Below, one piece after another: positions 2,769 to 26,347 of a stretch of 26,623 nucleotides of DNA. The DNA comes from a virus (lineage: Duplodnaviria; Caudoviricetes), in the IMG/VR virus record IMGVR_UViG_3300046643_000160, positions 1 to 26,623 of that record. One strand, given 5' to 3'. The notes below the pieces were generated by a model, which saw only the letters and a list, made by a program, of their open reading frames with translations, was not told the DNA's origin and did not search any database. The position numbers were made by a program, and so were the translations under genes. Position 1 is the stretch's first letter. Each line of letters starts with the position of its first letter.

Positions 2769-2774
2769 TATTTA
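2769..2774 (-). promoter_or_regulatory. TAAATA late-promoter-like box upstream of the tail fibre
   Basis: Minus strand aaTAAATAg, about 30 nt upstream of ATG 2738, in a short intergenic gap. Confidence 0.7.
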
Positions 2775-2785
2775 TTGAACCGGGG

Positions 2786-4318
2786 TTAGAACTCCACGGA
2801 TTCCCACTGCGCCTCGTACGACCCCTGACTGCCTGACCAGAAGCTGCTCCGTTGCCCGTAGTGACCTGCACGCAACCGAATTGGCTGGCTCAGAATGCAC
2901 ATCGCAACTGCGTCGATAAAGTCATCCTTTGAACGACCAGCACTGCGCACTGTGAAGTCACGGAGTTGAGTTCGAAAGCGGCCATCCATGACCGACTTGT
3001 GCGCGTGGATGAATCCACCAGACAAGCGGATGTCATAGGCCTCCATGATCTTCAGTGCCTTGTTCTGTGTAGTCGCCTTTCCTTCACAGGTCAGTCCTTT
3101 GCCTTCCATCTTCTTGCGCAAGATCGCAGGCAGGAAGTTCCCGATGCCGTTCGTCTCGATGACCACATGCGGAACATCGAACTCAAGCATCTTTTGAATA
3201 ACTTGCAGGCACTGCTCTTCAGCATCGCCAGACAATTGAATGGTTCGATGAACGTAGTAATGACCGTCATCGGTCGAGAACACGATTGCCAACACGCTGT
3301 CGTCGCTGGACAGGTTCGCCATCGAGGGGTCCCAGAACGCAGAGAACGAAACAACCCGTGCATCGCCAATCCTTGCCATCACACCGCCATTCGCGTGCGT
3401 GATGTCGATCTCATGGCTGTACGTGGCAATCAGACTTGGGTCGAGGACCGTGTTGTCTGGGTTGTATGGCAGCAGCAGGTACTGCGAAAAGAAGTGCCCC
3501 TTGGTCGAACTGGCAGCGGCCCGCTTGCGGATCTCGTCAAGCGGGAATCGCTCGGGCCAGGTCGGGACACCATCAAAGTTCGGGAACTCGCCAGTGCAGT
3601 TCTCAAGGACAGGAATCTTTAGGAACGACGCGCCGTCACGGATGCGCTCGTCCTTATCGACCTCACCCAAGATCTCTGGGTAAATGGAGTCATACGCGTG
3701 TGGCGTGCCAACGAAAAGTTCATGACCGCCAGGGACTAGGACGTGCGTTGGTTCAACGAGCTTGTCACGCAGGTTCTGACGCTCAGTGTCAGTGCGCGTG
3801 TTCTTTGGCACCTCCGTGTCGTCATAGATGATCCAGTCGGCACGAGCACCAGTGATCGACGAAAGCACGCCCCATGAAGTGACTGATGGTGTGCGCGCGT
3901 CAGTGAAGCCGCGAACGTAGATGCAATCGGCGCGGTTGATGTTCTCTTCACCGTGCAGGTGCTTCGCCAGCGGGTGACGCTGCATGATGTTTGCAACGTC
4001 AAGCGTGATCTTGGTTGCCGTCTTCTTGTCAGCGGAAAGAATCAAGAACCGAAGCGTTGGGTCTTGGGTCAGCATCCACGTGATGAACAAGCCGACAATG
4101 GTTGACTTCGCGGCACCACGGAAAACCTCAAGAACGCCTGTGTTGTTCAGCCAGCCCTTGTGACTGGTCAGGAACTCCATGATTCGGTAGTGAATCTGAG
4201 GAACATCCTTCCACTCGGGCTGCATCTGCGCCCAGACAAGAAAGAACTCCTGAAACGTGAAGGTCTGGACCGGCGTAGTACACGCAACACGTCGTGTGTT
4301 TCGCTTAATCGCTGGCAT
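2786..4318 (-). CDS. terL: Terminase large subunit, T7 gp19-like
   Basis: 510 aa. Walker A VFRGAAKST, Walker B IIYDD followed by EVPKN, RNase H-like nuclease motifs FWDPS...DDS and KDDFIDA. Confidence 0.93.
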   Translation of the reverse strand: MPAIKRNTRRVACTTPVQTFTFQEFFLVWAQMQPEWKDVPQIHYRIMEFLTSHKGWLNNTGVLEVFRGAAKSTIVGLFITWMLTQDPTLRFLILSADKKTATKITLDVANIMQRHPLAKHLHGEENINRADCIYVRGFTDARTPSVTSWGVLSSITGARADWIIYDDTEVPKNTRTDTERQNLRDKLVEPTHVLVPGGHELFVGTPHAYDSIYPEILGEVDKDERIRDGASFLKIPVLENCTGEFPNFDGVPTWPERFPLDEIRKRAAASSTKGHFFSQYLLLPYNPDNTVLDPSLIATYSHEIDITHANGGVMARIGDARVVSFSAFWDPSMANLSSDDSVLAIVFSTDDGHYYVHRTIQLSGDAEEQCLQVIQKMLEFDVPHVVIETNGIGNFLPAILRKKMEGKGLTCEGKATTQNKALKIMEAYDIRLSGGFIHAHKSVMDGRFRTQLRDFTVRSAGRSKDDFIDAVAMCILSQPIRLRAGHYGQRSSFWSGSQGSYEAQWESVEF

Positions 4319-4808
4319 CGTCGTCCTTCACGACATCAGCGTCCAACGACACCCCGGCTAGACCAAGCGTGCTTCGTGCTTTCTCAAGCAGTGCCGTGGT
4401 CTCATCACTGAAGACGTGCACAGTTTCTGCACGTAGTTCCTCTTCATGGCGATGCTTCTGACCGAGAACGGTGAGTTGGTCCGACAACTTCACCATCTCG
4501 CGCACGTACATCAAGTTCGTCTTGAAAACGTGCGCGGCGGCCTCGTCAACGGCGATCTCTTTTGCCTTGATCGTGCTCAGTGCAAGCGCAGATTCGAAGA
4601 TCTGCTCTGCCATAAGCTCAGAGGTGTACTGAAGACGCGCAGATAGCGGCAACTCGTCAAGGTTGTGGCTGCGCTGAACCTTTCCTGCGCGTTGCAGGAC
4701 GTTGCTCATCACGCGCTTCGCGTCTTTCCCAAGACGTGCGCTGTGCCTCTCGAATACAGTCTTCCCTGCTTCGCCCGCCTTTAGTGACGGCTTCTTTGGT
4801 GTCTCCAA
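4305..4808 (-). CDS. Probable terminase small subunit
   Basis: 167 aa, TTG start with SD GGGAG, overlaps the terL start, helical and charged. Call rests mainly on position. Confidence 0.55.
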   Translation of the reverse strand: METPKKPSLKAGEAGKTVFERHSARLGKDAKRVMSNVLQRAGKVQRSHNLDELPLSARLQYTSELMAEQIFESALALSTIKAKEIAVDEAAAHVFKTNLMYVREMVKLSDQLTVLGQKHRHEEELRAETVHVFSDETTALLEKARSTLGLAGVSLDADVVKDDDASD

Positions 4809-4835
4809 CGAGCACTCCCATAGTTGGTCGTGCTC

Positions 4836-4841
4836 TATTTA
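4836..4841 (-). promoter_or_regulatory. TAAATA box upstream of the terminase genes
   Basis: Minus strand tcTAAATAg, followed directly by a GAGCAC...GTGCTC stem (4810-4835) around the SD. Confidence 0.7.
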
Positions 4842-4847
4842 GAAAAC

Positions 4848-7800
4848 TCAGTTCTTCGGGTACACGTTCTCCATAGCCTCGTCAATCTCATCGAGACTTG
4901 TGTTCATGTTCTGCATGTGCTTCAGAAAGAACATCTTCTTCATATCGATGGTTTGATCCAGCTCGCCATGGACGGCCTTATCGCCCCAGTCGTACCAGCG
5001 CATTCCGTACGCATTGCTCAACGGTCCACCGAACAAGCGAACCGCTCGACGCTCAAGCTTTCGCCATGCCTCTTCGTCACCAGAGTTCTTGGTGGTCTGA
5101 TATGCGTCATTCGCGAGCATCACGGACTGGCTAACCTTGCCGATTGCCGGTCCCATAACGACGCCAAGTGCGTCAGCCGGACCCATCTTGTGATCGCCGC
5201 CTGTGTCGTACTTGTTCGCGATGTTCCCGCCAAAGCCGCGACCGTTGTTGAAAGCACGCGCAGTAGCGTCCATCCAATCAAAGGCTTCGACTGGGAATGC
5301 GAAGACGGAGGTGTTCTTGGCGGCGTTTTTGAGCTGTTCGGCAACCGAGCGATCTTTGGGCTCGCCCGTCGTGAACACATAGTCTCGGGTCTCGTTGATG
5401 ACGTGCGAAATCATCGTGCCAACAACCAGGCCCTCAAGCATCCGGTAGTTCGGGCGTTGAAGCTGCTTGTACGACATGCCCAATGCTGCGAACAGGAAGG
5501 ACTTGAACTGCATCATGAATCGAGCGAATTCCCCTTTCATGAATGGCGGCAGAGATCCCACACCCAAAGTCGCAATCTGGGACGACTGCGTCATGTGCAA
5601 GGCGTACTTCAACGCTTGTTGAGCATCCACGTCCTTGATTGCATCAATGTCGATGATCTTCACGTTCCCGCCCACGTCCCGCACTGCGTCGGAGGTATTC
5701 ACAACCTCTTTCAGCGAGTTGTACCGCGCCTCATCGATGCTGACGTTGTGGAACGCGTCACGATCAATTGCGGATAGCTCCTTCCACTCCTTGTTCGCAA
5801 ACTGATCGGCCCAGGTAGTGAGCGTCATACGTGACACCGAACCACGCTGGAAGTCCTCGAAGAGGTTCATGCCGCTCCAATGGTGCGTGAACGACGCCAT
5901 ACCAGCAGACGTGTCCGCAAAGTTTCGAACCATGGTCGGGCTGGATAACGTGTCGTACATCTCGTGTTCAAACTGGCTGCGAGCAACCGTGGAGAATCGA
6001 TGCTCCATGGTGTGCATGGCACCTTCAACCGCCACACCAATTTCGGCGCATGCCTGCTTGCCCAGCGCACGGTACTCGGCGTTGAACGTGTTCAGACCCT
6101 TGTCGCTGATGAATTTTCGCAGGCCGTGAGCAACTACCTGAGATTGAATTTCAGGCAAGTTACTCATCAAGGCGCCCCACAAGGAAGTCGCACGCGTGAA
6201 GCTCCGTAGGCCCGCACCAAGCGCGCTCGACTTCTGACCAACTCCAAGGAACTCATCAAGCATCCGGCTTGCCGCTTCACGATCAGTCAAGTGCAACTGC
6301 TCAGCCACGCCATTCCGAATATTGAGATCACGGAATGCATCGTTGTACTGTTCCAAGATCACATCACGGTTTGCCGATCCGAAGGTCTGGTGCAGTGCGT
6401 TCGAGTTCGCCGTTTCGCGATTCAAGACCGAGAAATTCTCAAGAGCATCGTGTTTCAAGAACGGTGCGATGACCTCATATGGCAAGTCAAGCGTTCGCGC
6501 CTTGTTCACTGCTCCACCCCGCAGCTTGTCCGACGCAAGCGAAGTGACGTTATGTACTGATGTAAATGTCAGACCGGAGAGCTTGTCATAGACTTCGGTG
6601 GCCATGTGCCGCGCTTCATCGGCGGACAGGCCATGCACTGTCTCAAATCCATTCGCAACGGTGTCCATGAACCGCTTGGGGTTCGCCAGCACGCGATCAC
6701 GGTCATAGATCCGATTGAAGTACGAGCTGTCAGTTACGGTCGCAAGGTCATCAGCGGTAACTTCACCACTGCGAAGCATGTTTGCAAGCTTTTCGTCCGT
6801 GATCTTTCGAATCGTCTCAACCACTGGCTTCAGGTGCGGGAATGGGATCACGTCACCAGTGTGCAAAGCGTGGTTCACCATATCAGCCGCATAGGACTTC
6901 ACCACAGACGGCGTGATTGGCAGATCCGAAACGTCCCGACCCATGGTCTGTAGCGCATCGCGAGCCCACGCCTCTTCTGTCGGCCCAACCACAATGTTCT
7001 CAACACGACGTGCCGTGTTCATTGCCTCTGCAACTTTGTACTGGTAGCTACCGAATTCCATGTTCCGCAGGGTTTCTGCGTTCTGAACCTTCGGACCCTC
7101 TGTCGTGAACTCGTGCGCGGTGAGCTTTTGAGCGAACTCACGCGAATGCGCAAGTTCTGAGTTCGCAAGCGTCATGCGGTCGCTTTTGAGCCAGTCCGGC
7201 GTAACGGCATCCATGAACTGCGTGGCCTTGTTCGCCACAAGCCGGGTTTCTTCCGCACCCGGCGTCACGTTGCTGGCCGAGAACAATGCTTGTTCAGCCG
7301 CCTTGCGTTCTTCTGCGGTGAACGCCTTGGCCCCTGTCTTACCAAGCACGGCACCGAACAAGGCAGTACCGAGCAACGCTGCACCAGCGTTCACGCTGTT
7401 TTCGCCGACACCAGACCAGTTCACCGAGCCGTCTGCATTTCGTGCACGGGCATCGGTGTTGGCGACTGTGCCAACCGCTGCCGCCGTGGCTGCTGTACCC
7501 ACCAATTTCTTCTTGGCAGAGCTAGAAAGCTGTGAGAACTTTGACCCGACACCGCGCATGCCAACGCCGCCGACCGTCCCCATTGCGAAGTTCTGAAGGC
7601 CTTCACTTGTCGTACGCGTTTCCTGGGTGCCTTGCAACAGAAGCTCAGGAATCGCTGATTCAAGAGCTTCACGGCCAAGGATGCTGACCCCACGCATTGC
7701 AAGTCCGCGTGCGGCATTGACTTCAAGACCAACGCCACCAGTCAGAAGGCCAATTGCAACGTTGTCAATGACGCCCATTGCACCACTTGCGATCATGCCT

Positions 7801-8249
7801 TTGGCACCAGCCGCCTCAAGGGTCTTGCGATTCTCACGCTCAGACCGAATGCGCTTCGCGATCAGGTCGTATTCCTGCTTGTTTGCCACGCGGGCGAACG
7901 ACGACGTGTACTCCCCAAGGCCATCCTCTTGCGCCTGTGTGATCGCATGGAAGGTGGTGTCGATTGGCTGCGTCTGGTAAGAAGCATCCTTGACACGCTG
8001 GTATGCCGAGCCAATCGCACTGTCAATCGTTGCCGCCTTGATGGTTTGACCCCAAGTGATCTTCTTTGCGTCTTCTGCGCGCTTCTTGTCCGCCGCATCC
8101 TTTGCAGCTTGATTCTTTGTATCGCGTGCGCTGGCATCGCGCATCACGTCCCAAGGAGTCACGTACTGCGATGATGGGGTTTGGACAAGACGTTGATTTC
8201 GGTCTTCATCAGACTCGGTGATGAACGTTGCTGGTACTTCGTTAGCCAT
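4848..8249 (-). CDS. Large internal virion (ejection) protein, T7 gp16 position
   Basis: 1133 aa, Ala-rich with Gly-rich hydrophobic segments; third of three successive genes after the tail tube; C-terminal MQFKSF motif recalled from such proteins. Confidence 0.7.
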   Translation of the reverse strand: MANEVPATFITESDEDRNQRLVQTPSSQYVTPWDVMRDASARDTKNQAAKDAADKKRAEDAKKITWGQTIKAATIDSAIGSAYQRVKDASYQTQPIDTTFHAITQAQEDGLGEYTSSFARVANKQEYDLIAKRIRSERENRKTLEAAGAKGMIASGAMGVIDNVAIGLLTGGVGLEVNAARGLAMRGVSILGREALESAIPELLLQGTQETRTTSEGLQNFAMGTVGGVGMRGVGSKFSQLSSSAKKKLVGTAATAAAVGTVANTDARARNADGSVNWSGVGENSVNAGAALLGTALFGAVLGKTGAKAFTAEERKAAEQALFSASNVTPGAEETRLVANKATQFMDAVTPDWLKSDRMTLANSELAHSREFAQKLTAHEFTTEGPKVQNAETLRNMEFGSYQYKVAEAMNTARRVENIVVGPTEEAWARDALQTMGRDVSDLPITPSVVKSYAADMVNHALHTGDVIPFPHLKPVVETIRKITDEKLANMLRSGEVTADDLATVTDSSYFNRIYDRDRVLANPKRFMDTVANGFETVHGLSADEARHMATEVYDKLSGLTFTSVHNVTSLASDKLRGGAVNKARTLDLPYEVIAPFLKHDALENFSVLNRETANSNALHQTFGSANRDVILEQYNDAFRDLNIRNGVAEQLHLTDREAASRMLDEFLGVGQKSSALGAGLRSFTRATSLWGALMSNLPEIQSQVVAHGLRKFISDKGLNTFNAEYRALGKQACAEIGVAVEGAMHTMEHRFSTVARSQFEHEMYDTLSSPTMVRNFADTSAGMASFTHHWSGMNLFEDFQRGSVSRMTLTTWADQFANKEWKELSAIDRDAFHNVSIDEARYNSLKEVVNTSDAVRDVGGNVKIIDIDAIKDVDAQQALKYALHMTQSSQIATLGVGSLPPFMKGEFARFMMQFKSFLFAALGMSYKQLQRPNYRMLEGLVVGTMISHVINETRDYVFTTGEPKDRSVAEQLKNAAKNTSVFAFPVEAFDWMDATARAFNNGRGFGGNIANKYDTGGDHKMGPADALGVVMGPAIGKVSQSVMLANDAYQTTKNSGDEEAWRKLERRAVRLFGGPLSNAYGMRWYDWGDKAVHGELDQTIDMKKMFFLKHMQNMNTSLDEIDEAMENVYPKN

Positions 8250-8257
8250 GACTGCCT

Positions 8258-10630
8258 TTACTCAATTGACTTCCACACGTCCTTGTCGATGCCTGCTGTG
8301 CTAAGTGGGTCCTTAGTGCCTCGCGCAATCGCCCAAGGCCGATTGACCTGCTTGGTGCTCTTGAGTGGCACACCACCTCGGCCACGGATGCTTTGGTTCG
8401 TCACGATGGACGGTCCAACCTTCTGTTCCATTGCGGCGTTGTATCGGTCGATCTTGGAGTTCATCTGCTCTTGAGCCATGGCGGCCATGTACTCAGACGT
8501 GTTCCGTGCATCAAAACGGTACCTCAATGGGCTTCCATGCTCATCGGATGCGACGGTGATGTTTCCCTTCGAGTCGCGGTACAAGATGCTGAATCGGTCG
8601 TTGCCTTGGCTATCAATGCCAGCATGTTCAAGGCTGATCTTTGCGTCCTTTGGAATGGATGGCAGCTTTTCTCGAACATCCTTCTCGATGGCTTCTGATG
8701 TTGCGTTGAACACCCTCTCCGCCGAAGTGGTGCTGCGCACCGCTTTGCCATCGAAGTCACCGAGCTTGGTAACACCGGAAGTTGTCTCCATGGTGGAGGT
8801 GGCGAGGCGTGCCGCTGCTTCAGGAGAACGACCCAACTGCACATGCGATTCGTACTGCTGCCGCCATGCCGCCTCGTACTGAGGTGTCACTGAGCCGGCC
8901 TGCTTTCCGCTGAACCTTGATACCAGTTCTGCAACGGGATTCGACTTGCTGCCAGGACTTGGCCTGAGGTAGTCGTCGCTCTGCTTCTTGGCGATCTTGC
9001 GTTCATCGTCGGTCATACGGCTTGCCGTCGCAACCTGCTTACGGGCTTCCGCGATGCCGACGACCGGCGAACGCTCCATGATGTCAACAACTTCGGGTGG
9101 CATCGACCCCAGGGCCAGCGGGTTCGTATCCTTGATCTTGTTCAGGAACGCAATTGCTGTCTTTGCCTGGATTTCGTCACCACTGACAACGGCCTGCTTC
9201 ACCGAGTTCTTCACCTCGGATGGCATGTACGTTGGCTTCGTTGAGACCATCCATTGGTGAATGAAGTTCTCACCACCTGGGGTGGAAAGAACTGACTGCA
9301 AAGTCGCCTTCGCGCCGTACTGGTTGTGAACGGCGAGGGCAAAGTTCTGATCAGTCAGAGCCTGCGTGCCCGTGTCATCTTGCTCGTGGCCGAGCCGCTT
9401 GAGTTGAGCCATCACGTTCGCACGGTGCCGGTTTTCCTCGACACGGTTCCGTGCACGACCAATCATTTCCTGTGACTTGATCACCAGATCGGGGTTGTCC
9501 TTGATCATTGGGTGTTCAAGCAACGACTTCTCTGCGGCGTTAAGATCCTTCAACGTCAACGCATGGCTATCACCCATCGCGTCCAGTTCAATCCCCACTG
9601 AAGAGATCACGCGTGTACCTGCCTTGAGGTCTTCACGCTCCTTGACCTTGGCAGCATTCTGAATCTCGCTGGTGTTGCGGTCGTACTGACGGTCCAGCAT
9701 GCCAAGGGCTTTGTCCCGCGCCTTCTCACGCTCTGCTTCATTGGTGAAAGGCAGCGACTGGTACACGTTCGTCAATTGATTTCGTGCATCCTCATACAGG
9801 TACTTGTCCGTCTGAGCCTCACCAGTCATAGCCGATAGCGCACCGTTGTTCGGATCAAGCAGCACGTTGTCCGTACGCGCAGCAAAGGAGCGGGCCAACT
9901 GGTTGTACAGGACGTCCCGCTTTGCGGAGATTTGTTCGGGTGCGGCCACGGCGGCAAGACGTGGGTTCTGCAACGTCATGCCTTCAATAATGTTGGCCGC
10001 TTGGCGAAGCGAGTCTTGATCGCCTGAATTGACAGCGACACGAATTGCCTCGGCCGCATTCGTATCAACATCGGCCATGGCACGGCTCACAATCAGCGGC
10101 TTGATCGTCTTCTCTTGGAAGTTCATCGTGCGCTGCGCTTGTTCGCCGACCATGTTCGTCTCGAAGTTCTTGACGATCATCTTGTTAGACAGGTTCGCCT
10201 TCGAGGTCTCGTCGTCCACGATGGCTTGCAGGCCATCTTTGTAGTTCTGGGTGTACTGCTCAACATCCCAACCTTCGGCAACTTGCTGACCTGCAAGGTT
10301 GTTCCGCAAGTCGTTCTCACGAGCCATGACGTTCACGCGCGCACGCGTGGCACGGCCATCTTCATCTGCAAGGCGTAGTGCCTCGAACTGTGCGCTGATG
10401 TCGGTCACTGATTTGGTTGCAGCTTCAACAAGCCCAGCCTCTGCGATTGACTCCTTCGCCGCCATTGGATTCAAGACCTGGGACGTTGGTGCATTCCTTG
10501 CGTCAAGGCCCATGCCAACCTGCGCGACGTTATTCCCAAGTCGTTGCTCAACGTTCGTGTCAAGACCGCGCACGCCGGAGCCAGGCTCCATGGGGCGGTT
10601 CATAAGATTGTCTGTAATGCGGATTGCCAT
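8258..10630 (-). CDS. Internal virion (ejection) protein, T7 gp15 position
   Basis: 790 aa, predicted helical, SD GGGAG; size and synteny match gp15. Confidence 0.65.
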   Translation of the reverse strand: MAIRITDNLMNRPMEPGSGVRGLDTNVEQRLGNNVAQVGMGLDARNAPTSQVLNPMAAKESIAEAGLVEAATKSVTDISAQFEALRLADEDGRATRARVNVMARENDLRNNLAGQQVAEGWDVEQYTQNYKDGLQAIVDDETSKANLSNKMIVKNFETNMVGEQAQRTMNFQEKTIKPLIVSRAMADVDTNAAEAIRVAVNSGDQDSLRQAANIIEGMTLQNPRLAAVAAPEQISAKRDVLYNQLARSFAARTDNVLLDPNNGALSAMTGEAQTDKYLYEDARNQLTNVYQSLPFTNEAEREKARDKALGMLDRQYDRNTSEIQNAAKVKEREDLKAGTRVISSVGIELDAMGDSHALTLKDLNAAEKSLLEHPMIKDNPDLVIKSQEMIGRARNRVEENRHRANVMAQLKRLGHEQDDTGTQALTDQNFALAVHNQYGAKATLQSVLSTPGGENFIHQWMVSTKPTYMPSEVKNSVKQAVVSGDEIQAKTAIAFLNKIKDTNPLALGSMPPEVVDIMERSPVVGIAEARKQVATASRMTDDERKIAKKQSDDYLRPSPGSKSNPVAELVSRFSGKQAGSVTPQYEAAWRQQYESHVQLGRSPEAAARLATSTMETTSGVTKLGDFDGKAVRSTTSAERVFNATSEAIEKDVREKLPSIPKDAKISLEHAGIDSQGNDRFSILYRDSKGNITVASDEHGSPLRYRFDARNTSEYMAAMAQEQMNSKIDRYNAAMEQKVGPSIVTNQSIRGRGGVPLKSTKQVNRPWAIARGTKDPLSTAGIDKDVWKSIE

Positions 10631-10639
10631 ACTGCTCCC

Positions 10640-11257
10640 TTAAGCCATGTTCCGCATCGTCGGTGTACCCGCAGATCCGTTCACGGCTGTGCCGCCCGTG
10701 TTCAGATTGCTGGTGCCGCTCAAGCCGCCAGACTTTGCGTACGCTGATCCAAGCGTCCCAATTGCGGAGGTAATGCCAGTGACCATCGTGGTCTGGCCAA
10801 TACTGTTCAGTGAGTTCGCCTGCCCAAGCGAGCTTTGAAGTGCCTTGTCGCCGGCTTCAGCAGCCCAACGACCATTGGTCTTAAGCTGAACCACCTTGTT
10901 CACGCCTGAGTACAGAGCAGCAAGCGCATCTGCACTTGCAAGCATCTCGATCTGATCCATTGCGGCTTGTGCGGAACCTTCGCCGATGACTGCCCCTGAT
11001 GCAGCCTGCGCGGCAGTCAACGAGCCACGCATTTGCATTGACGTCCGACGAATCTGCGCGACTTGATCGTTAGCCTGTTTCATCACGGCTTCCGATTCCA
11101 TCTCGTTCAGCCGCTCTTGAAGCATTCCCTTGTATTCGGCGTCGTAACCCGCTGCGCGTTCTTGATCCGCTTGCGTGTTCGCCGCTTCTTGCTGCTTTGA
11201 CGAACCATAAATTGATCCTGCTGCGGCGACCGCCGCTGCGGCAAATCCATACGGCAT
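10640..11257 (-). CDS. Internal virion protein, T7 gp14 position
   Basis: 205 aa, A/G/Q/S-rich with hydrophobic N-terminus (AAAAVAAAGSIYG), typical of small ejection proteins. Confidence 0.7.
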   Translation of the reverse strand: MPYGFAAAAVAAAGSIYGSSKQQEAANTQADQERAAGYDAEYKGMLQERLNEMESEAVMKQANDQVAQIRRTSMQMRGSLTAAQAASGAVIGEGSAQAAMDQIEMLASADALAALYSGVNKVVQLKTNGRWAAEAGDKALQSSLGQANSLNSIGQTTMVTGITSAIGTLGSAYAKSGGLSGTSNLNTGGTAVNGSAGTPTMRNMA

Positions 11258-14552: not shown

Positions 14553-14555
14553 CGC

Positions 14556-17370: not shown

Positions 17371-17381
17371 GCGGGGCCTCC

Positions 17382-17415: not shown

Positions 17416-17428
17416 GAGTCCTGGGTAC

Positions 17429-19081
17429 TTAAGCCACCGCAGGTTCAGCGGTTTGCGGCCCAGCCTTCATGGCCGCTTGCATCATTTCGGCCTGTTGTGC
17501 CTGCTGTTGGGCAGCTTCTTGGGCTTTCGCACGAGCCGCACGCATCTGACGCAGCTTGTCAGGACTGACCATCAGTTCAGCATCAACACCAAGAAGGTCT
17601 GCAACCTCTTGCATGCCTTTCTCGAAGTCAAATACATCGAGCAAGTCCGGCTTCTGCGTATTCGCAGCGGTGGTGATCAATCGGTTCATGAACTCATCAA
17701 TCGCCTGCACTTCCAACATCTTCTGCGAGCGTGCCAGAGGTGAGCGGTACTTGATCGTCAGAACACGATCACGTAGACCATCGGGAACACGAGGCAAGGC
17801 ACCAGCACGCAACGCCATGCCAAAGCAGCGTTCAACAAACGGCTGCAAGAACTCGGCTTGGAAGCGCGCAAAGATCGGGCCGAGGATCTGACGAACCTGG
17901 TTGTTTCGCGTCTGCACCTCAGTTGCAGTCTGAATGGCCTTCTCAGTTGGGCCGAGCTGGTCAGCCAGGAGCACGCGGCGGATCGAGGCTTGCAATCCCT
18001 GGATCTCGTTCATCGCGAACTGGATGTCACCGCCAGACTTCAGGATTTGCAGGTTATCCATGTCGCCCACGGGAATGATGCGACGTGCACCAATCTTGAT
18101 GGTGGCTGGGTTCACGACGCCGTCGTCCTTAACCTTGTACATGCCAGAGATGTGCATTGCCATGTTCTCGTGCATGGCTGACTTCACGGCGTTCACGGAC
18201 TTGATGTCAGGTAGCGCATCGAAGACCGGGCCGCGAGCGTAGTCGGTGTCTGGAATGCGCATCCAACGAGGCACGATCACTGGCATCTCGTGGAAGCCAG
18301 ATTCCTTGACGATGGTTCCACACTGTGCGACCCAAATACTTTCCCATGGCAAGTTCTTTTGGGTCTTGCCAACGGACTGCTTGCCGTTCCGCATGCGCGG
18401 ACGGATGGCAACAACAAAGCGGTGCTTCTTGGTGCCATGCGGATCGCTTGAGAATGCGTCCTTCATGTTCTGCGGCATTGCATCAAGACCGAACTCGTTC
18501 ACCGCCTCTTGCACCGTCCAATAGAACGAGCGGTACACCGTGTCGATGTACCCCAGGTGCAGCGTCTCTTGGCAGTACAGGTGGTGCAGCGGCCAGGATT
18601 CGAAGTACAGCTTCCCGCCCTTCATCTCGACGTACAAGCCAGCCATGCCAGCAATCATCGAGTGCGTCATGAACTCCGGTGCTTCGCAGTCGAAGTTTGA
18701 TCCGTGGATCATTGTGTGGATGCGCTGTGCCGAATCCTCAAGCCACTCCTTGCTGTCTTGGTCAAGCGCGTCCTCGTCGGCGTTTGGCACCTCAAGGTTG
18801 AACCAAAGCGAACCCGGTGGCGTGAGCGACGATTGCACGCTGGACGACAGCAAGCGCACGGCATCTGTTGCCGTGCTGTCCATCAACTGTGCCTGTTGCG
18901 TCCGCGTCGTTCCGGCGTTCGATACGCCGTCACCGTTGTTCTCTTGATTGAAGCCCGCACCGAGGTTTGGGTACGTGAAGCGATAGCAGTCGCGGTACTC
19001 TTGATCGAGCGGGTCACGAATCGCTTTCAAACGGTCGTGCTGCTTCAACACGGACCTTCCGCGTTCTTGTTCCTTGTCCAT
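17429..19081 (-). CDS. Portal / head-tail connector (T7 gp8, Bbp21 family)
   Basis: 550 aa, DSTA..A...L.S......LTPP...WF, PRW.....YARGP...ALPDIK, TATEV..R and Y.SPLARSQK motifs. Confidence 0.95.
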   Translation of the reverse strand: MDKEQERGRSVLKQHDRLKAIRDPLDQEYRDCYRFTYPNLGAGFNQENNGDGVSNAGTTRTQQAQLMDSTATDAVRLLSSSVQSSLTPPGSLWFNLEVPNADEDALDQDSKEWLEDSAQRIHTMIHGSNFDCEAPEFMTHSMIAGMAGLYVEMKGGKLYFESWPLHHLYCQETLHLGYIDTVYRSFYWTVQEAVNEFGLDAMPQNMKDAFSSDPHGTKKHRFVVAIRPRMRNGKQSVGKTQKNLPWESIWVAQCGTIVKESGFHEMPVIVPRWMRIPDTDYARGPVFDALPDIKSVNAVKSAMHENMAMHISGMYKVKDDGVVNPATIKIGARRIIPVGDMDNLQILKSGGDIQFAMNEIQGLQASIRRVLLADQLGPTEKAIQTATEVQTRNNQVRQILGPIFARFQAEFLQPFVERCFGMALRAGALPRVPDGLRDRVLTIKYRSPLARSQKMLEVQAIDEFMNRLITTAANTQKPDLLDVFDFEKGMQEVADLLGVDAELMVSPDKLRQMRAARAKAQEAAQQQAQQAEMMQAAMKAGPQTAEPAVA

Positions 19082-19084
19082 CCC

Positions 19085-19417
19085 TTACCCCGCGAGTAGT
19101 GTTGTTCTGCGCTTGGCGCGCACTTGTGCATCGCTACCGCTGGACAGGAACGGATCAATGTTTGACTGCTTCACAGCGTCATGAGCATCGTCGTTCGCCA
19201 GTGCCGCAGCACCTGAAAGCAAGGTCCGGGTCTGGAAGTACCCGTTTGCCTTCGCGTTCGTTTGTGCGACCTGACCGGCCAACTCGGCCTGCTCGTTCGC
19301 GGTGATCTGATCTCGGATGGCCTTGGTGGCCGCGTTCGTCGCATCGATCTGTGCTTGAACCTTTGCCTGCTGAGTGACGGGCGAGTTCTCAATGACCTTG
19401 GCCCAACTGAAGCCCAT
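19085..19417 (-). CDS. Small putative virion protein upstream of the portal
   Basis: 110 aa, A/Q-rich, ends KRRTTLLAG; tightly packed with neighbours. Confidence 0.7.
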   Translation of the reverse strand: MGFSWAKVIENSPVTQQAKVQAQIDATNAATKAIRDQITANEQAELAGQVAQTNAKANGYFQTRTLLSGAAALANDDAHDAVKQSNIDPFLSSGSDAQVRAKRRTTLLAG

Positions 19418-19419
19418 GG

Positions 19420-19803
19420 TTAGAACCCTGCGACCAAGGTCTTGGCACGCTTCGCCTTCTTGACGGACGGTGCGTCTGGGTCTTCAAGATCAATGCTTGA
19501 CTCGGGCGTTGGTGCGAACGCTTGATCGCCCTCTTCAGCGGCTACGCCAGCCAACAGGGTCCGGTTGCGTGCCCGACGCGCTTGATCAGCATTCGCCGAC
19601 GCAACTGACTCAGCCAGGGTTTTGGCATCGGCCTCTTGCTGCTTCGCGTCGGACTCGGCCTTGATGCGCGCCGTCTCCGCATCCGCAAGGCGGCGGTTTG
19701 CTTCTGTCTGCGCCGCGATCTCGGCGGCTGATGGACCTTTCGAACCACCACCGCACAGCATCCGGTGATCAGGTGCTTGATTTGTTAGTTTTGAAAAGTC
19801 CAC
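19420..19803 (-). CDS. Small putative virion protein, first gene of the structural block
   Basis: 127 aa, GTG start with SD GGAGG, CGGGSKGP motif, coiled coil, RTLLAG motif. Confidence 0.7.
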   Translation of the reverse strand: MDFSKLTNQAPDHRMLCGGGSKGPSAAEIAAQTEANRRLADAETARIKAESDAKQQEADAKTLAESVASANADQARRARNRTLLAGVAAEEGDQAFAPTPESSIDLEDPDAPSVKKAKRAKTLVAGF

Positions 19804-19807: not shown

Positions 19808-19836
19808 TACCTCCACTGATTTGTTGGAGGTATTTA
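19808..19836 (-). promoter_or_regulatory. TAAATA box with anti-SD hairpin at the head of the structural block
   Basis: Minus strand TAAATACCTCCA-acaaatcag-TGGAGGTA: an 8-bp stem pairs CCTCC with the SD GGAGG. Confidence 0.8.
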
Positions 19837-20687: not shown

Positions 20688-20876
20688 GTGGACATGGAAC
20701 ACAAACAGCCGCGTCCGATCCTCGGACCTCGTCAGGACCAGATGAAGCACTTCAGCAAGGAGACTGCTGGCGTGAAGCTCACAGCACTCCTGCTCTGTCA
20801 GCTTCCATTCATCTTTTGGTCGCTTGGCACCGTGGTGGCGGCTGGCGTGACCGCGTATCTGATCTGGGGTCGTTGA
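20688..20876 (+). CDS. Small membrane protein
   Basis: About 60 aa with a hydrophobic C-terminal half; its TGA overlaps the next ATG (TGATG). Start could be GTG 20688 or ATG 20694. Confidence 0.5.
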   Translation: MDMEHKQPRPILGPRQDQMKHFSKETAGVKLTALLLCQLPFIFWSLGTVVAAGVTAYLIWGR

Positions 20877-22201
20877 TGAACTTTGATAAGTCAATCAAAC
20901 GCCTGACCAAACTACTGCGTGCAGTCGAAGAGGCTCCAGACGATTATCCGAGGTTGCTGACATTACAACGCGCGATTGCTGCCCGAATTATTGGTGCCGA
21001 ACGCAAGATCGCCATACAACAAGCGGCAAAAGCTGATTTAGCTCGCAAAAGGAAACAACGAGTCTCCAAACAGGATTCCATCGAGTTAAAGGCACTGATT
21101 GATGCCATGACTGAAGTCATCGATAAGCTCCGGTACTTCATATACATCGTCAAAAGCTTCGGCGACGGTCTTGCATATGCGTACTTGGATACGTTTGCCT
21201 TAAAGCACATGTATTTCGAGACGCATACGTATAACCCAAAGCAAACGGCGGGGGCGTTGGGCAAAGACGGTTTCAGGAATGAGTGGCGAGTACTCAAGAT
21301 GGTCATTGAGAAAGGCGTGCCCGCTGTCCTGTGCGACCTCACGAACACACTCAGGCATGGGGACATCTGCCCTCTCGTTGGCCCAGACCCTATCCCCGTG
21401 GAAATAAAGTCCAGCGCAAACCGGAGTGCAAGAGCTGATAGGCAGATTGCGAACGTGCAGGCACTGAACTCGTTCTACGCGACCGATGAGGCCGAGACTT
21501 TGCACGGAATCAAGGATGTGAAGCGCATGGAGGTTGGCGGTCGCAGTGACCACATCCCAACGATCAATGAGTGCATCAAAAACTCAGGGGCGACCAACTT
21601 TGCGTACGTGAAGCTGGAAGGCCTGACGTACTTTGCTGTCAGGGGCGATGGGGAAGCCGCGCGCCTGGACCAACTAGGCGCAGGTCCAAGAACAATCCTG
21701 GCGACGCTCAATGAAACCAAGCAAGAACGGCAATGGATGCCGTACTACCCGTTCACGCTGTCCATCAGGGACGAACAAGATCTGCTTGACTTCATCAATG
21801 GCGAGGTCGTTCTTGGGATGATGATTCACGCTGACGAGGTTGTCGCCGCGTTCGCAAAGTACGGTCTGGACGCGCAGTTCATCAACAACTCGGTTGGGAT
21901 CTTGAAGATCACCCGCACAGGTGATCCTGAAGGCAACATGGCAATCGTGCCACTGCAATTCTTTCAACGCGTCATCCTTGAGTTCATGAGTATCGATGCA
22001 TTGATCCAGGCTCAATTGGCGAAGGTCGCGAGCATGGACGAGGGACAGCCTGAATTGACGAAGCAAATCAATGAGAAGGTAGCCGAGGCTGGCGGCAAGG
22101 TCACAGAGGAGATCTTGAAGCAGCTATTTCCGAATGGCTACCTAGATCACTGGCCGCCGCGCTACGAGGCTATGTTTCCAGATCAGCCAGTTGACTCGTG
22201 A
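20876..22201 (+). CDS. Hypothetical protein with N-terminal coiled coil and candidate PD-(D/E)xK nuclease motif
   Basis: 441 aa from ATG 20876; RHGDICPLVGPDPIPVEIKSS fits D-x(n)-E-x-K. The ORF is secure, the nuclease call is inference. Confidence 0.6.
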   Translation: MNFDKSIKRLTKLLRAVEEAPDDYPRLLTLQRAIAARIIGAERKIAIQQAAKADLARKRKQRVSKQDSIELKALIDAMTEVIDKLRYFIYIVKSFGDGLAYAYLDTFALKHMYFETHTYNPKQTAGALGKDGFRNEWRVLKMVIEKGVPAVLCDLTNTLRHGDICPLVGPDPIPVEIKSSANRSARADRQIANVQALNSFYATDEAETLHGIKDVKRMEVGGRSDHIPTINECIKNSGATNFAYVKLEGLTYFAVRGDGEAARLDQLGAGPRTILATLNETKQERQWMPYYPFTLSIRDEQDLLDFINGEVVLGMMIHADEVVAAFAKYGLDAQFINNSVGILKITRTGDPEGNMAIVPLQFFQRVILEFMSIDALIQAQLAKVASMDEGQPELTKQINEKVAEAGGKVTEEILKQLFPNGYLDHWPPRYEAMFPDQPVDS

Positions 22202-22615
22202 TCTGGTGTGCTTCAAGGGTTGAAGGACCCGGACGGCACGGCCTTCAATCCAGCCCCTGAACCCGCACGTTTGATTGTTTGACACGCGACTGGCCTATAA
22301 GTCGAATGCACCGTCACTTGTCGTACCTTCGCTAACCCTTGGTGCAGTTCGCCCCCGGCGTTGAAGCTTGAGTCATGCCGCTATGCGCTTTAGCGCAAAG
22401 AAGTAGGCAGGACCGCTGTGAGCGAGGTGAGCGCAGCGAGCATCGGGAGTCAGCGGGCATTGCCTTCGAGGCGGTCACGCCGAGACGACCATAGTGGCTA
22501 CAGTGCTGTGCTGCCCTGGCGGGCAGGCAAGGCGAGGTTGGTGCCTCGCAGTGCCTCGCTGCGCTCGTCCCCGACTCGGCACCAACCCGCCAATTGACCC
22601 CGCTGACGCGGGCAA

Positions 22616-22682
22616 AAAGCAATGTAATGGTGTCGCTTTAAGGTATCTCCTTTTATTTAAAGCGACACCATTACATTGCTTT
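22616..22682. repeat. 26-bp perfect inverted repeat with a 15-nt spacer
   Basis: AAAGCAATGTAATGGTGTCGCTTTAA (22616-22641) and its reverse complement (22657-22682); minus-strand TAAATA at 22654-22659. Confidence 0.95.
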
Positions 22683-22739
22683 CACAGATACGGGATGGAG
22701 ACAAGTGACAGCTCTTTGGGTCTTGTCTGCGTAGGCCGC

Positions 22740-22745
22740 TAAATA
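22740..22745 (+). promoter_or_regulatory. TAAATA box upstream of the 22872 gene leader
   Basis: cTAAATAc, overlapped by the TACATTGC/GCAATGTA stem. Confidence 0.65.
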
Positions 22746-22871
22746 CATTGCGAACAGCAATGTAGTCGGGCTTCCGACGAGCGGTCATCGACGTACTCCG
22801 AGTTAATCCCCAACCCGACTACATCCGCTGTTGCCAGCGGTGGGGACCGCTGAAACTACTCGGAGTTCAGC

Positions 22872-23504
22872 ATGGCACTTCAAATCTTCAAGCTCACTGA
22901 GCCGCTGTACGGCTTCTATCTCAAGGGCTTGCTTGTCGCCTCGTTCCTAAGCTTCCGTGATCGTGCAAAGGCGTACGCCATCACTGAAGTCACTGGCGTT
23001 CATCGCGACCTGAACGAAATCTACAGATACATCAACCTGCGCAGGCTCTACAACAGCCTGGGCGCTACGAGTCCAAAGCAGCGTAAGGCTGTCCAAGCAG
23101 CCTTGCAGGTTTACTACACGCGCAAGTCACGTGGATCAAACGTGAGCGGCATGGTCTCGATGTGGGTCAACCGTGGTGGTGAGCGAATCACCGAGTCAGC
23201 GCAGAAGGTGCTTGCGCACTACCAACTTGCAAATCAGGAGGCACTCATGGAAATCGAGTCCGGCATGTACGTCAAGGACGCAGGCAATGGCAAGTGCCTT
23301 TGCGTGATCCCATTGCAATTCGAAATGACTAAGACCGAGGTTGACGCGTTGTTAAAGCTTGTCGACGTGCTTGACGAGGAAAGTGCAGCGCAAGCGGCCA
23401 AGAAGCCGCGCAAACCTCGCACTCCTGACAGCGAGGTGACAAAGGCCAAGAAGCGTTCAGCAGCGTTGGCCCGTCAAGCCCGCGCTCGTGCAGCTCAAGT
23501 GTGA
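22872..23504 (+). CDS. Basic hypothetical protein with a NUMOD3-like C-terminal motif
   Basis: 210 aa, SD GGAG; RTPDSEVTKAKKRSAALAR resembles NUMOD3 DNA-binding repeats. Confidence 0.6.
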   Translation: MALQIFKLTEPLYGFYLKGLLVASFLSFRDRAKAYAITEVTGVHRDLNEIYRYINLRRLYNSLGATSPKQRKAVQAALQVYYTRKSRGSNVSGMVSMWVNRGGERITESAQKVLAHYQLANQEALMEIESGMYVKDAGNGKCLCVIPLQFEMTKTEVDALLKLVDVLDEESAAQAAKKPRKPRTPDSEVTKAKKRSAALARQARARAAQV

Positions 23505-23806
23505 GGCGAGAGCCACGCGTACACCGAGGTAAGCAGGGTCCCAACGCAGCCGAATGCGACCGCGAAGGCAGTCCACAATGCCGCCTTTGCGTTCTTCTTG
23601 CCAGACTTGTTGAAGGCAATCATGTGCCCGGTTACGTGCGACATGATGTTCGCTTCTGCGTTCTCAACAATTGACAGCTCCCATGCAGGCAAGACCGGGA
23701 TCTTGCTCGCCTGCCACCACAGGTACGAAGCATATAGACCCGTCACAAGTGCCATGGCAGCCATGATGAGGCCAATGACGGCCATTACGTTGTCGTGATT
23801 TGCCAT
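23495..23806 (-). CDS. Two-TM membrane protein
   Basis: ATG 23806 with SD GGGAG; 103 aa with two hydrophobic helices. Confidence 0.65.
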   Translation of the reverse strand: MANHDNVMAVIGLIMAAMALVTGLYASYLWWQASKIPVLPAWELSIVENAEANIMSHVTGHMIAFNKSGKKNAKAALWTAFAVAFGCVGTLLTSVYAWLSPHT

Positions 23807-23867
23807 GGAGCTCCCTGAAAATGAGACTGCAAAGCTCTCATAATGCCACCCCAGAAAGGGAGGCAAT

Positions 23868-24677
23868 GTGACAACGATTTACCACTACACAGACGTCCAT
23901 GGTTTTTTGGAGATCATCTCAAAGAGAAAGCTTTGGCTTTCGGGAACCAACAACCTGAACGACAAAACTGAACGAATACACGGGAAAAATAAGGTACTCA
24001 AGGCACTTGAAAATTTCGATGACTTCGAGGGAAAAAGCAAGGTTATCGAGATATTCACTCGCCTCATGGGTCATGCCCAGTACGTGTGCTCATTCTCGCA
24101 AGACGGAGACACGCTCAGTCAATGGCGGGGCTATGCCGATGATGGGCATGGTTTTGCCATAGGCTTCAATAGCGATACATTCCCTGAGAACCATGGCATT
24201 GCCATCAATACTTCTGATCCTGAATTCGCAACGTCGCTACAACGTGTGGAGTACGACCCAAGCAAGCAGGATTACCTGATCCATCAGATCATCGACAGTG
24301 CTAGACCCGATGCTGCAGCGACGGCGATTCCAAGACAAGTTCAGCTAATTGGCGCTGCTACAAGATTAGCAAGCCTAACCATCACAATGAAGAACGATGG
24401 ATTTAAAGAGGAAGCCGAGTGGAGGCTGGTTCATGCCCCAATCATCAATCTCACTCCATCAGAAGGACGTCTGATTACGTGCAAGCCAGAGCACTTCAAA
24501 CAACGTGTTTCAGGCAAACGAATTTGCACTTACTTCGAGCATTCTTTCGAGGTGTCAGCAATCGAGGAGATCATGATTGGTCCAAAGTGCTTGGTTCACA
24601 ACGAGGATCTGCAAATGCTGCTTCTCTCAAATGGCATCGACCTCACACCTCAGCATTCAAAGTCCACCTATAGGTAG
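23868..24677 (+). CDS. DUF2971-domain protein
   Basis: IYHYT, LND..E, YVCSFS..GDTLSQWRGYA...GFAIGF, K..GF..E.EWR and IMIGP motifs; GTG start with SD GGGAGG. Confidence 0.85.
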   Translation: MTTIYHYTDVHGFLEIISKRKLWLSGTNNLNDKTERIHGKNKVLKALENFDDFEGKSKVIEIFTRLMGHAQYVCSFSQDGDTLSQWRGYADDGHGFAIGFNSDTFPENHGIAINTSDPEFATSLQRVEYDPSKQDYLIHQIIDSARPDAAATAIPRQVQLIGAATRLASLTITMKNDGFKEEAEWRLVHAPIINLTPSEGRLITCKPEHFKQRVSGKRICTYFEHSFEVSAIEEIMIGPKCLVHNEDLQMLLLSNGIDLTPQHSKSTYR

Positions 24678-24747: not shown

Positions 24748-25377
24748 ATGCTCGAAGTTCAGCCAACCAAAACGATCCCAGCTTGGTATGCCACTCGCGC
24801 CAAGACCGGGCCAAAGGCGCCGATGCAGCCGATCACGAGCCGCGCTGACATCGCCGCCATCAAGCTCCTATTGAAAGACTCGGCACGCGACCTTGCCCTG
24901 TTCACCGTGGGCATCAACACAGCGTACCGAGCAAGCGACTACCTTGGCTGGAAGGTCAAGGACGTGCGTGGCCTTGAGCCAAGCGATGGCGTTCAGTTCA
25001 AAGAACAGAAGACCAAGAAGTACCGCGGTGTGTTCCTGAACAGAACAGCGATTGAAGCAATCAACGAACTGTTGGCCTCAAGGCCGGATGCACAGGACGA
25101 TGACTACCTGTTCGTTGGAACTGACGGCAGAACACCGATCACGGTTCATTGGTACGGGCAGTTGGTCAAACGCTGGTGCCTGGCTGTCGGCATGAAAGGT
25201 CACTTTGGTTCGCACACGCTGCGTAAGACCTGGGGGTACATGCAGCGCACCGTGAACAACATGGCCCTTGAGAAGATCCAGAAGGCATACGGGCACGCGT
25301 CTAGCGCGGTCACGTTGATCTACGTCTGCATCCCTGACGAAGAGATGCGCGACATGTACATGAGCCTGGAACTGTAA
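24748..25377 (+). CDS. Tyrosine recombinase, essentially catalytic domain only
   Basis: 209 aa; catalytic R (GINTAYRASD), K (EQKTKK), HxxR (HTLRKT), GH and Y (TLIY). Confidence 0.93.
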   Translation: MLEVQPTKTIPAWYATRAKTGPKAPMQPITSRADIAAIKLLLKDSARDLALFTVGINTAYRASDYLGWKVKDVRGLEPSDGVQFKEQKTKKYRGVFLNRTAIEAINELLASRPDAQDDDYLFVGTDGRTPITVHWYGQLVKRWCLAVGMKGHFGSHTLRKTWGYMQRTVNNMALEKIQKAYGHASSAVTLIYVCIPDEEMRDMYMSLEL

Positions 25378-25386: not shown

Positions 25387-25647
25387 ATGGAACACAAATT
25401 CTTTGACCACACCAAATGCGGCTTCTATGACTTGAGCGAATCGCAACGCACCGAGTTCATCAAACAGAACGTCACGGCCTTTGGTGTGCTCTTTGTACTG
25501 CTGCCATTGCTCATTGCACCATTCGCTGGCGAGTACAAGGCCGCCATGATCGTGACGTTCTTGCTCGCCCTCGTCGGCGTAACTGTCGTGATGAAAGAGA
25601 ACTTGAACCGCTTCCATCGCGAGCAATACGACAAGCGAAGCGTGTAA
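25387..25647 (+). CDS. Two-TM membrane protein
   Basis: 86 aa, G-rich SD, directly after the recombinase. Confidence 0.65.
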   Translation: MEHKFFDHTKCGFYDLSESQRTEFIKQNVTAFGVLFVLLPLLIAPFAGEYKAAMIVTFLLALVGVTVVMKENLNRFHREQYDKRSV

Positions 25648-25650
25648 ATA
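25645..25650 (+). promoter_or_regulatory. TAAATA box upstream of the candidate ncRNA
   Basis: gTAAATAc overlapping the stop codon of the preceding gene. Confidence 0.6.
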
Positions 25651-25818: not shown

Positions 25819-25855
25819 TGGTTCATTGCTTTCAGGTGTTTAGCGCAGAACCGTC

Positions 25856-25889
25856 TAAATACGAGTATCCGAAACACAGGAACTCGTAT
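25856..25889 (+). promoter_or_regulatory. TAAATA box with a hairpin burying the SD and start codon
   Basis: TAAATA 25856-25861; perfect 8-bp stem ATACGAGT/ACTCGTAT enclosing AGGA and ending inside the ATG. Confidence 0.75.
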
Positions 25890-26073
25890 GAAGCACAAGC
25901 ATGAAACACCACACGCATTGGCATTGCAGCTCCGCGACACGCTGCAATCCGTCATCGATCAAAGCACCGGCACGAACGTGCTGATGATCAGCCAATCGAA
26001 CCTCGGGACGCTGCGCTCGATGCTGGCCGTGCTTGAGAACAAGATCGAGAAGCTGTACGGAGTTCAGCAGTGA
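25888..26073 (+). CDS. Small hypothetical protein (61 aa)
   Basis: ATG 25888 with SD AGGA; MKHKHETPH...YGVQQ. Confidence 0.65.
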   Translation: MKHKHETPHALALQLRDTLQSVIDQSTGTNVLMISQSNLGTLRSMLAVLENKIEKLYGVQQ

Positions 26074-26138
26074 CGACGACAGCCATCCTGATCTTGCTTG
26101 GCATCCTTGCGCAGTACCTTCGCAAGATCGGCAAATGA
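26070..26138 (+). CDS. 22-aa hydrophobic micropeptide
   Basis: GTG start with SD GGAG; MTTTAILILLGILAQYLRKIGK; GTGA and ATGA overlaps with both neighbours. Confidence 0.5.
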   Translation: MTTTAILILLGILAQYLRKIGK

Positions 26139-26305
26139 TCCTCACATCGCGACCAGGCACCACCGTACGCGCTGACATTCTCGTTGATGCCATCGCTGAT
26201 CTTCGCGCCGTACTTGCGGCCATTGATGCGAAGGACTTCGCTGCACTACGGCAAGACTTTGTGCATCAGTGCGACGAGATGATTGATTACTTGGAAGTCG
26301 ATTGA
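26135..26305 (+). CDS. Small hypothetical protein (56 aa)
   Basis: ATG 26135 coupled to the micropeptide stop; acidic C-terminus. Confidence 0.55.
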   Translation: MILTSRPGTTVRADILVDAIADLRAVLAAIDAKDFAALRQDFVHQCDEMIDYLEVD

Positions 26306-26341
26306 CACGTGAGTTTTTCCAGTGTTTTACGTGAAGTTCGC

Positions 26342-26347
26342 TAAATA
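26342..26347 (+). promoter_or_regulatory. TAAATA box upstream of the last ORF
   Basis: cTAAATAc, 27 nt before ATG 26375. Confidence 0.65.

Follow-up and report, generated by a model that had tools for sequence, protein, structure and literature searches.

Which factor reads the genes of a virus that encodes one kind of particle and carries the promoter core of another? The window analysed here, the whole IMG/VR record IMGVR_UViG_3300046643_000160 (26,623 nucleotides (nt); classed as a provirus, 70% complete), encodes the virion of a podovirus and contains repeated copies of TAAATA, the core of the late promoters that T4-like phages read with gp55. A sequence-only reading of the window had proposed that this element depends on a gp55-type sigma factor and may be switched on by a co-infecting T4-like phage. 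At the sequence level, that proposal is supported by the placement of the motif, by its conservation and by the finding of no encoded reader. We favour, at a probability of about two in three, a virophage-like prophage whose late transcription would be borrowed from a T4-like helper, both the activity of the promoters and the dependence on a helper being inferences from these data.

TAAATA precedes co-oriented genes in the window

An exact scan of both strands found twelve copies of TAAATA in the window, all at the coordinates and on the strands listed by the sequence-only reading, and no further ones. The copies and the open reading frames (ORFs, with lengths in amino acids (aa)) behind them are the following.

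2769..2774, minus strand: 30 nt before the tail fibre gene
4836..4841, minus strand: 27 nt before the putative small terminase gene
12548..12553, minus strand: 16 nt before the GNAT and internal-virion-protein block
15143..15148, minus strand: 29 nt before the gene for tail tubular protein A, behind a hairpin 3′ of the capsid gene
16130..16135, minus strand: 122 nt ahead of the major capsid gene; a terminator-like hairpin (16193-16174) precedes the motif
17410..17415, minus strand: 39 nt before the Bbp19-like gene and scaffold
19831..19836, minus strand: opens the virion cluster, ahead of two small genes and the portal gene
22654..22659, minus strand: where arm and loop of a perfect 26-bp inverted repeat meet (22616-22682); no convincing ORF follows
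22740..22745, plus strand: 126 nt before a 210-aa ORF, with a structured leader
25645..25650, plus strand: contains the TAA stop of an 86-aa ORF; next start 237 nt away; the weakest copy
25856..25861, plus strand: 26 nt before the ORF at 25888
26342..26347, plus strand: 27 nt before the ORF at 26375, which runs off the end of the record

No hexamer of the window is more over-represented than TAAATA (12 copies versus 0.48 expected under an order-2 Markov model), and 100 dinucleotide shuffles yielded a mean of 1.64 copies and a maximum of 5. Placement was evaluated with a manually curated list of 28 genes. All twelve copies are not fully within a gene (background 0.106, p=2e-12), in agreement with the earlier impression that long ORFs are free of the motif, and for 10/12 a co-oriented start follows within 150 nt (background 0.079, p=5e-10). 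The 14 anagram hexamers together gave 18 hits in the window, nine of them outside genes and three at most 150 nt before a co-oriented start, with never more than five copies of any one.

Two earlier counts had to be corrected. Eleven copies had been placed upstream of a co-oriented gene or RNA; ten have a clear gene behind them, and those at 22654 and 25645 do not. The distance to the start, described as mostly 16-40 nt, has this value for seven copies; it is 27-69 nt for an eighth, depending on start-codon choice, and 122 and 126 nt for two others. The remarks that copies follow terminators and that the cargo genes lack the motif were borne out by the hairpin before the copy at 16130 and by the absence of an exact TAAATA within 120 nt upstream of any of the three cargo ORFs.

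Some copies are accompanied by RNA or DNA structures. The 126-nt leader of the 210-aa ORF (22746-22871) allows alternative pairings (z -2.9). The inverted repeat at 22616-22682, which overlaps a copy, exposes a 15-nt loop with AAGGAG, resembling a Shine-Dalgarno (SD) sequence. Its form is reminiscent of the T4 hairpins in which late promoters are embedded, although no ORF lies downstream; it could be an origin, a cruciform or a small RNA.

The motif resembles gp55-type late promoters

The late promoters of T4 consist of TATAAATA at positions -13 to -6 with a loose first base, and those of phage Aeh1 read CTAAATA (PMC1524935). They have no -35 box; gp55 alone gives basal transcription on supercoiled plasmid DNA, gp33 represses this basal level, and DNA-loaded gp45 activates late transcription (PMC2988020).

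The window shows the TAAATA core, no -35 box and a position upstream of, and co-oriented with, virion units. A flank matrix of 127 sites from 12 records confirmed the reported lack of a -35 box, as no column between -36 and -3 exceeded 0.44 for any base. The base preceding the core was A in 66% of these sites and varied by lineage, being C or G in the window, L014 and G007 and A in G008, G009, G014 and G015 (G and L numbers denote our records). The full octamer TATAAATA occurs in the records G001, G007 and L004.

A phage with its own gp55 offers a direct comparison. In Delftia phage phiW-14, a phage of Comamonadaceae, gp55, gp33 and gp45 are annotated, and TAAATA is the top hexamer of its positions 1-50 kb (12 copies versus 0.47 expected). 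Ten of these twelve copies lie at most 200 nt before an annotated gene, with mixed bases before the core; the genes behind them include ssb and uvsW besides portal, sheath, gp26 and gp2. This resemblance is a match of kind, not the identification of a helper.

TAAATA might instead be read by a host factor or another resident element, such as an alternative sigma factor or a stress regulator, with no lytic helper involved, and a repressor-less prophage could well be tied to a host stress signal. The -10 boxes of sigma-70 and RpoS, however, need a final T, which TAAATA lacks. No conserved box was found upstream or downstream of the hexamer, which equals that of phiW-14, a gp55-encoding phage of the likely host group. 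Lineages also differ in the base before the core, and so do T4-like phages (PMC1524935). We consider a host reader quite unlikely.

Motif positions are conserved in a clade of integrating elements

Relatives of the window were taken from virus collections. They form a clade of integrating elements of 31-34 kb, defined by one branch of tail tubular protein B (tail B). TAAATA occurs at the same sites across this clade: at the head of the virion cluster and before the Bbp19-like, capsid, tail A, small terminase and fibre genes. Relatives also carry it before GNAT or the first internal protein. The copy before the fibre gene is kept at 21-30 nt in G001, G006-G009, G014, G015 and G017, and a copy precedes the small terminase gene in G001 and G006-G009. 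A mechanical test counted a motif as placed if it lay outside long ORFs and before an SD sequence plus start, with the same rule for all records. The motif was placed in 113/168 sites of 12 clade records versus 12/110 sites of 8 control records. Enrichment between genes and on the coding strand thus holds in the window as well as in the clade.

A tail B tree of 38 rows, calculated by a quick method, contained a 17-row branch (SH-aLRT 100) with all 13 rows labelled motif-bearing. In three of the four unlabelled rows of this branch (33-47% GC), the motif precedes capsid and tail A. Members that keep the motif positions are 39-68% identical in tail B and differ in integrases and integration sites.

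In 17/20 clade records with a capsid homolog, some of them near-duplicates, a copy lies 119-142 nt before the capsid gene; among the exceptions, L015 is cut and the nearest copy of G013 is at 22 nt. In the window, the leader (16008-16129) has a stable predicted fold (z -4.8) with the SD sequence in a loop. Its length of about 120-140 nt is conserved across the clade, and it is possibly a conserved regulatory RNA.

Two capsid types, about 30% and 63-70% identical to that of the window, were found under tail B and portal proteins that are 56-68% identical (G007, G008, G009, G010 and G013 compared with the window, G001, G006 and L003). This suggests capsid exchange beneath an unchanged promoter.

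Elements outside the clade look different. The complete Ralstonia sister element NZ_CP115943.1 (35,541 bp) has the same virion gene order, encodes LexA-family and CII regulators and contains 0 copies of TAAATA. G016, on the sister branch, encodes CI, PolA and primase/helicase, and TAAATA is not enriched in it. A CI/Cro/CII switch and replication genes are present in both controls G016 and L168. None of 65 outgroup terminase loci showed TAAATA enrichment below p=0.009. The evidence for borrowing is the motif together with the loss of a repressor and replication block that the sister elements have kept.

These comparisons also bear on the idea that TAAATA is no promoter and acts in the RNA or reflects composition, as an AU-rich enhancer, a processing site, or a stop codon followed by an AT-rich spacer. 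Some copies do include a stop codon (25645), and AT-rich words collect in spacers, as the nine extragenic anagram hits out of 18 illustrate. Yet the distances to the start span 16 to 142 nt, copies stand behind terminator-like hairpins, no anagram exceeds five copies in the window, and TAAATA is nearly absent both from long ORFs of clade members with 53-59% GC and from the sister lineage. Such a signal is very improbable.

No reader of the motif was found in the elements

The gp55 family phrog_234 matched none of 14 clade or near-clade records, while T4 (1e-70) and phiW-14 (1e-48) were matched. A two-sequence gp55 profile built from T4 and phiW-14 found nothing at E<=1 in 14,447 six-frame segments of 36 records, and for gp33 and gp45 there was no tblastn match below E=0.3. 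The window and its clade thus show neither gp55, gp33 and gp45 nor a T4-type virion. No RNA polymerase was matched in G007, G009, G014, G015, G019, G020 or the incomplete window, and no repressor in these six relatives. The missing RNA polymerase alone is no evidence, because the HTVC010P/BPP-1-like phage records examined list none either.

One member, G020 (32,887 bp), is delimited on both sides: a Tex-like S1 gene flanks it at one end and a split arsC-like gene at the other. The attachment (att) sites are marked by an 11-bp repeat (556 and 32,761), with a serine integrase adjacent. This integrase inserts at the 5′ end of the arsC-like gene and supplies a replacement start. None of the 31 scanned ORFs of G020 matched a sigma factor, RNA or DNA polymerase, repressor, primase, helicase or endolysin, and most matched nothing. 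Since G020 is bounded at a CheckV completeness of 65%, the values of 59-66% given for members of 31-34 kb are understated. G009, G014, G015 and G019 (27-34 kb) present the same picture, with no sigma, polymerase or repressor matches; they carry an integrase and small orphans, and HNH, endonuclease VII or NUMOD3 nucleases occur in G009, G014 and G019, not in G015. The earlier statement that the window encodes no gp55-type sigma factor therefore holds, and it extends to the clade records searched, including bounded G020, the missing part of the window being unread.

Integration is indicated by the att repeat of G020, by integrases in G007, G009, G014, G015 and G019, and by the provirus class of the window. 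In G014, G015 and G019 the integrase gene is directly preceded by TAAATA, and in G007 the small recombinase gene is. The two Arg tRNA genes of G009 were rejected as att repeats, having only 11 bp in common, and G009 was not counted as bounded; L005, retrieved with an integrase query, proved to be an unrelated element.

All-against-all comparison of 964 non-virion ORFs from eight records, made with blastp, which is less sensitive than phmmer, found tyrosine recombinases in 7/8 records and an 89-aa mobile-element ORF in 5/8; no other non-virion family occurred in more than three. An element-encoded reader is not evident, because only recombinases are common to nearly all members.

An autonomous temperate phage with convergent T4-like promoters would have to read them with a factor of its own that escaped recognition: a diverged sigma-like protein, the 89-aa ORF, a polymerase-like 413-aa ORF or a virion-cluster gene that moonlights. 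Most accessory ORFs match no family and the window is incomplete, which leaves space for one. The 89-aa ORF, found in 6 records, was rejected as a candidate; it is absent from bounded G020, is widespread elsewhere and has a small alpha/beta fold that is not sigma-like and has no significant PDB match. A 413/461-aa ORF (G020 2234-3475 (L252); G010 3124-4509 (L075); 11 homologs) has motifs that by eye recall PolA, T7-type and TV-Pol polymerases (for TV-Pol, PMC2579912). It stands itself behind TAAATA, was present in 2/36 records and matched nothing in Pfam, PHROG, NCBIfam, PDB or PolA searches; it was rejected as an RNA polymerase, and a role in replication is more likely than promoter reading. 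Neither can the 210-aa ORF of the window be retained: its model is of low confidence (pLDDT 53) with no PDB match, and the ORF has two homologs and is absent from the other records; an Atlas search gave a weak lead, 0.85 only, to RegA, a repressor of translation. Genes of the virion cluster, GNAT for instance, occur in motif-less outgroups too. An own reader is, in our estimation, unlikely.

Several members have no repressor, replication or endolysin genes, as might be expected of defective relics of a phage that once owned a gp55-like gene. Their virion genes are intact, however, the motif positions are kept at 39-68% tail B identity with different integrases and sites, and no gp55 remnant was detected in any member examined. 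Of the explanations weighed here, decay is the least probable.

Proposed mechanism

In the reading that we prefer, the ancestor of the clade would have lost its lambdoid switch, and mostly its replication genes too, and would have gained a gp55-type promoter before each unit. The prophage could then stay silent without a repressor, its promoters being unreadable as long as no helper is present. Infection by a T4-like phage would supply gp55, with gp33 and the gp45 clamp, and the gp55-modified host RNA polymerase would fire the promoters of the element. Where the integrase or recombinase carries the motif, the same signal might also trigger excision or resolution. Members that lack replication genes may be copied by helper or host replication, with the clamp loaded, and the endolysin of the helper may be used where the element encodes a holin only. 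No endolysin match was found downstream of the holin in G014, G015 and G020; a Bordetella control has an annotated lysozyme at that place. The element would package its own DNA in its own particle and compete with the helper. Motif-driven HNH, endonuclease VII or GIY-YIG nucleases possibly cut or resolve DNA, and cargo genes would use host promoters.

Put more broadly, and held with somewhat more reserve, the elements are probably a bacterial 'provirophage' clade: repressor-less temperate podoviruses whose whole lytic programme, with excision included in some members, is wired to the gp55 late machinery of unrelated T4-like phages, which they parasitise, each lineage being tuned to its helper by the base before the core. 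They may also serve as a defence of the host population.

Several observations weigh against helper-borrowed transcription. The provirus record that makes up the window is 70% complete, with the remainder unread, and most non-virion ORFs have no family match, leaving room for a diverged reader; the 413/461-aa ORF shows polymerase-like motifs by eye (D..C, AK..L..G, HDG). Exact scanning found no full TATAAATA octamer in the window, and phiW-14 has no exact TAAATA before gp23. Within the clade, placement was not significant per record for G006, G007 and G015, TAAATA counts are not enriched in the low-GC members (33-47% GC), G001 has no copy before its capsid gene, and neither the G009 integrase nor the G020 serine integrase is preceded by TAAATA. 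Because activated late transcription in T4 needs gp45 loaded on the same DNA, and gp33 represses the basal level (PMC2988020), the element would have to be clamp-loaded and to survive any degradation of host DNA. Finally, G007 encodes its own primase and an SF3-type helicase. The suggestion that replication is perhaps borrowed as well does not, for this reason, apply to all members.

Other features of the window

The virion, terminase and holin set is complete in the window (1 to 19.8 kb); to its right follow cargo, a small tyrosine recombinase and ORFs with no assigned family.

1..261, minus strand: holin (phrog_920, E=1e-9)
225..2738, minus strand: tail fibre (phrog_18345, phrog_1640)
2786-4318, minus strand: large terminase (phrog_38, E=3e-68)
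4305-4808, minus strand: putative small terminase, by position only; no family match
4848..11257, minus strand: three internal virion proteins of 1133, 790 and 205 aa (phrog_342, phrog_9258 (weak), phrog_418)
11259..12531, minus strand: hydroxylase-like, cupin and GNAT genes (PF05118, PF07883, PF00583)
12567..15113, minus strand: tail tubular proteins B and A (phrog_376, phrog_394)
15201..19803, minus strand: major capsid, scaffold, Bbp19-like, portal and small upstream genes (PF19821, phrog_3742, PF25181, PF12236)
20876..24677: cargo with no exact motif, around the motif-led 210-aa ORF
at 20876: cargo ORF of 441 aa (phrog_14906)
23495-23806: cargo ORF
23868-24677: DUF2971 cargo gene, PADLOC PDC-S31-like; defence cargo
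24748..25377, plus strand: small tyrosine recombinase, catalytic domain only (PF00589, E=8e-18)

The virion is of the HTVC010P/BPP-1 type. It had been called T7-like, which is correct for the architecture and not for T7 proper. Among deposited phages, MEP301 (capsid 39%) and HTVC010P-type phages (tail B at most 39%) come closest. Homologs of tail B with 49-66% identity are assigned, by label only, to Hydrogenophaga, Polaromonas, Uliginosibacterium and Burkholderiales, and one, on a 21-kb contig, to Caldisericota. Two proteins of the window are also listed for a 34,603-bp contig. Two scans of species-representative genomes found no relative of the window.

Rfam gave no match in the window at E<=1, and no long promoter repeat was present in 19400-26623. 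A sigma-70 scan of the window returned 4 sites versus 6.9 in shuffles; the one before DUF2971 is a lead only. The small tyrosine recombinase has a one-mismatch copy of the motif 65 nt upstream. Palindromes of the form TGATAC-N11-GTATCA (20410-20437 and 24712-24735) flank the cargo block, the second adjoining the 5′ side of the recombinase gene, and the same palindrome lies upstream of the virion cluster in L003 (397) and L014 (985). They are possible recombinase binding or resolution sites.

Some relatives carry tRNA genes, namely Arg(CCT) in G009 (L073:1961-2035) and G010 (L075:241-315), and Ser and Ala in G007 (L024:11468-11628). G009 carries defence cargo at its left end, a Pycsar cyclase/effector pair (L073:668-1856).

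Comparison with known systems

No description of such elements was found in the literature searched, which was covered by titles and the beginnings of abstracts and includes few subscription papers. If the helper reading is right, the elements would be missed by satellite finders keyed to absent virion genes; DNA damage would fail to induce them, and they could not be purified from plaques on their own. The last point fits the absence of a deposited phage above 39% tail identity, which undersampling explains too. The elements would also provide natural helper-gated promoters and a possible new defence layer against T4-like phages.

With the T4-type late promoters of T4, Aeh1 and phiW-14 they share the TAAATA core, the lack of a -35 box, the position before virion units and the loose preceding base; here, however, these occur in an unrelated temperate podovirus clade with no detectable gp55, gp33 or gp45. 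The virion gene set and order are those of HTVC010P-type, MEP301 and BPP-1-like podoviruses and their temperate relatives, which differ in having no such TAAATA placement, the temperate ones keeping CI/CII and replication genes. The lambdoid-type sister lineage differs in the same direction, as G007, G009, G014, G015, G019 and G020 have no repressor matches and, of these, G007 alone has primase/helicase. Autographiviridae (T7-like) use a single-subunit RNA polymerase and long promoters, neither of which was found in the incomplete window, where the promoters were sought in 19400-26623.

P4/P2, phage-inducible chromosomal islands (PICI), capsid-forming PICI (cf-PICI) and the PICI-like elements (PLE) of ICP1 are satellites of about 7-20 kb that take the capsids, or at least the tails, of their helpers. 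Like the elements described here, P4, PICI, cf-PICI and PLE are integrated with their own recombinase, carry defence cargo and homing-type nucleases, and are triggered by a helper, a likeness that we would extend to our clade. In contrast to these classical satellites, the present elements comprise 31-34 kb and encode portal, capsid, tail, fibre, internal proteins and terminase. Enterobacterial islands with T7-like promoters are reportedly also integrated and have been proposed to be transcribed by the machinery of an infecting phage, from long T7 polymerase promoters; to our knowledge they have no complete virion module.

The closest parallel lies with the virophages and endogenous mavirus-like elements (EMALE), exemplified by mavirus with CroV, which combine their own virion genes, integration, a late-promoter motif of the helper and lineage-specific variants of it (PMC10945749). 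Silence when no helper is present is described there as well and would apply here by analogy. Virophages are eukaryotic, non-tailed and dependent on giant viruses, whereas the present element belongs to a tailed prokaryotic virus and would be a functional analogue only. Among phages, the satellites known to us steal particles, and the temperate phages known to us run their own switch. If our reading is true, the clade would represent a third lifestyle, in which the particle is self-built and both decision and transcription are outsourced to a T4-like phage.

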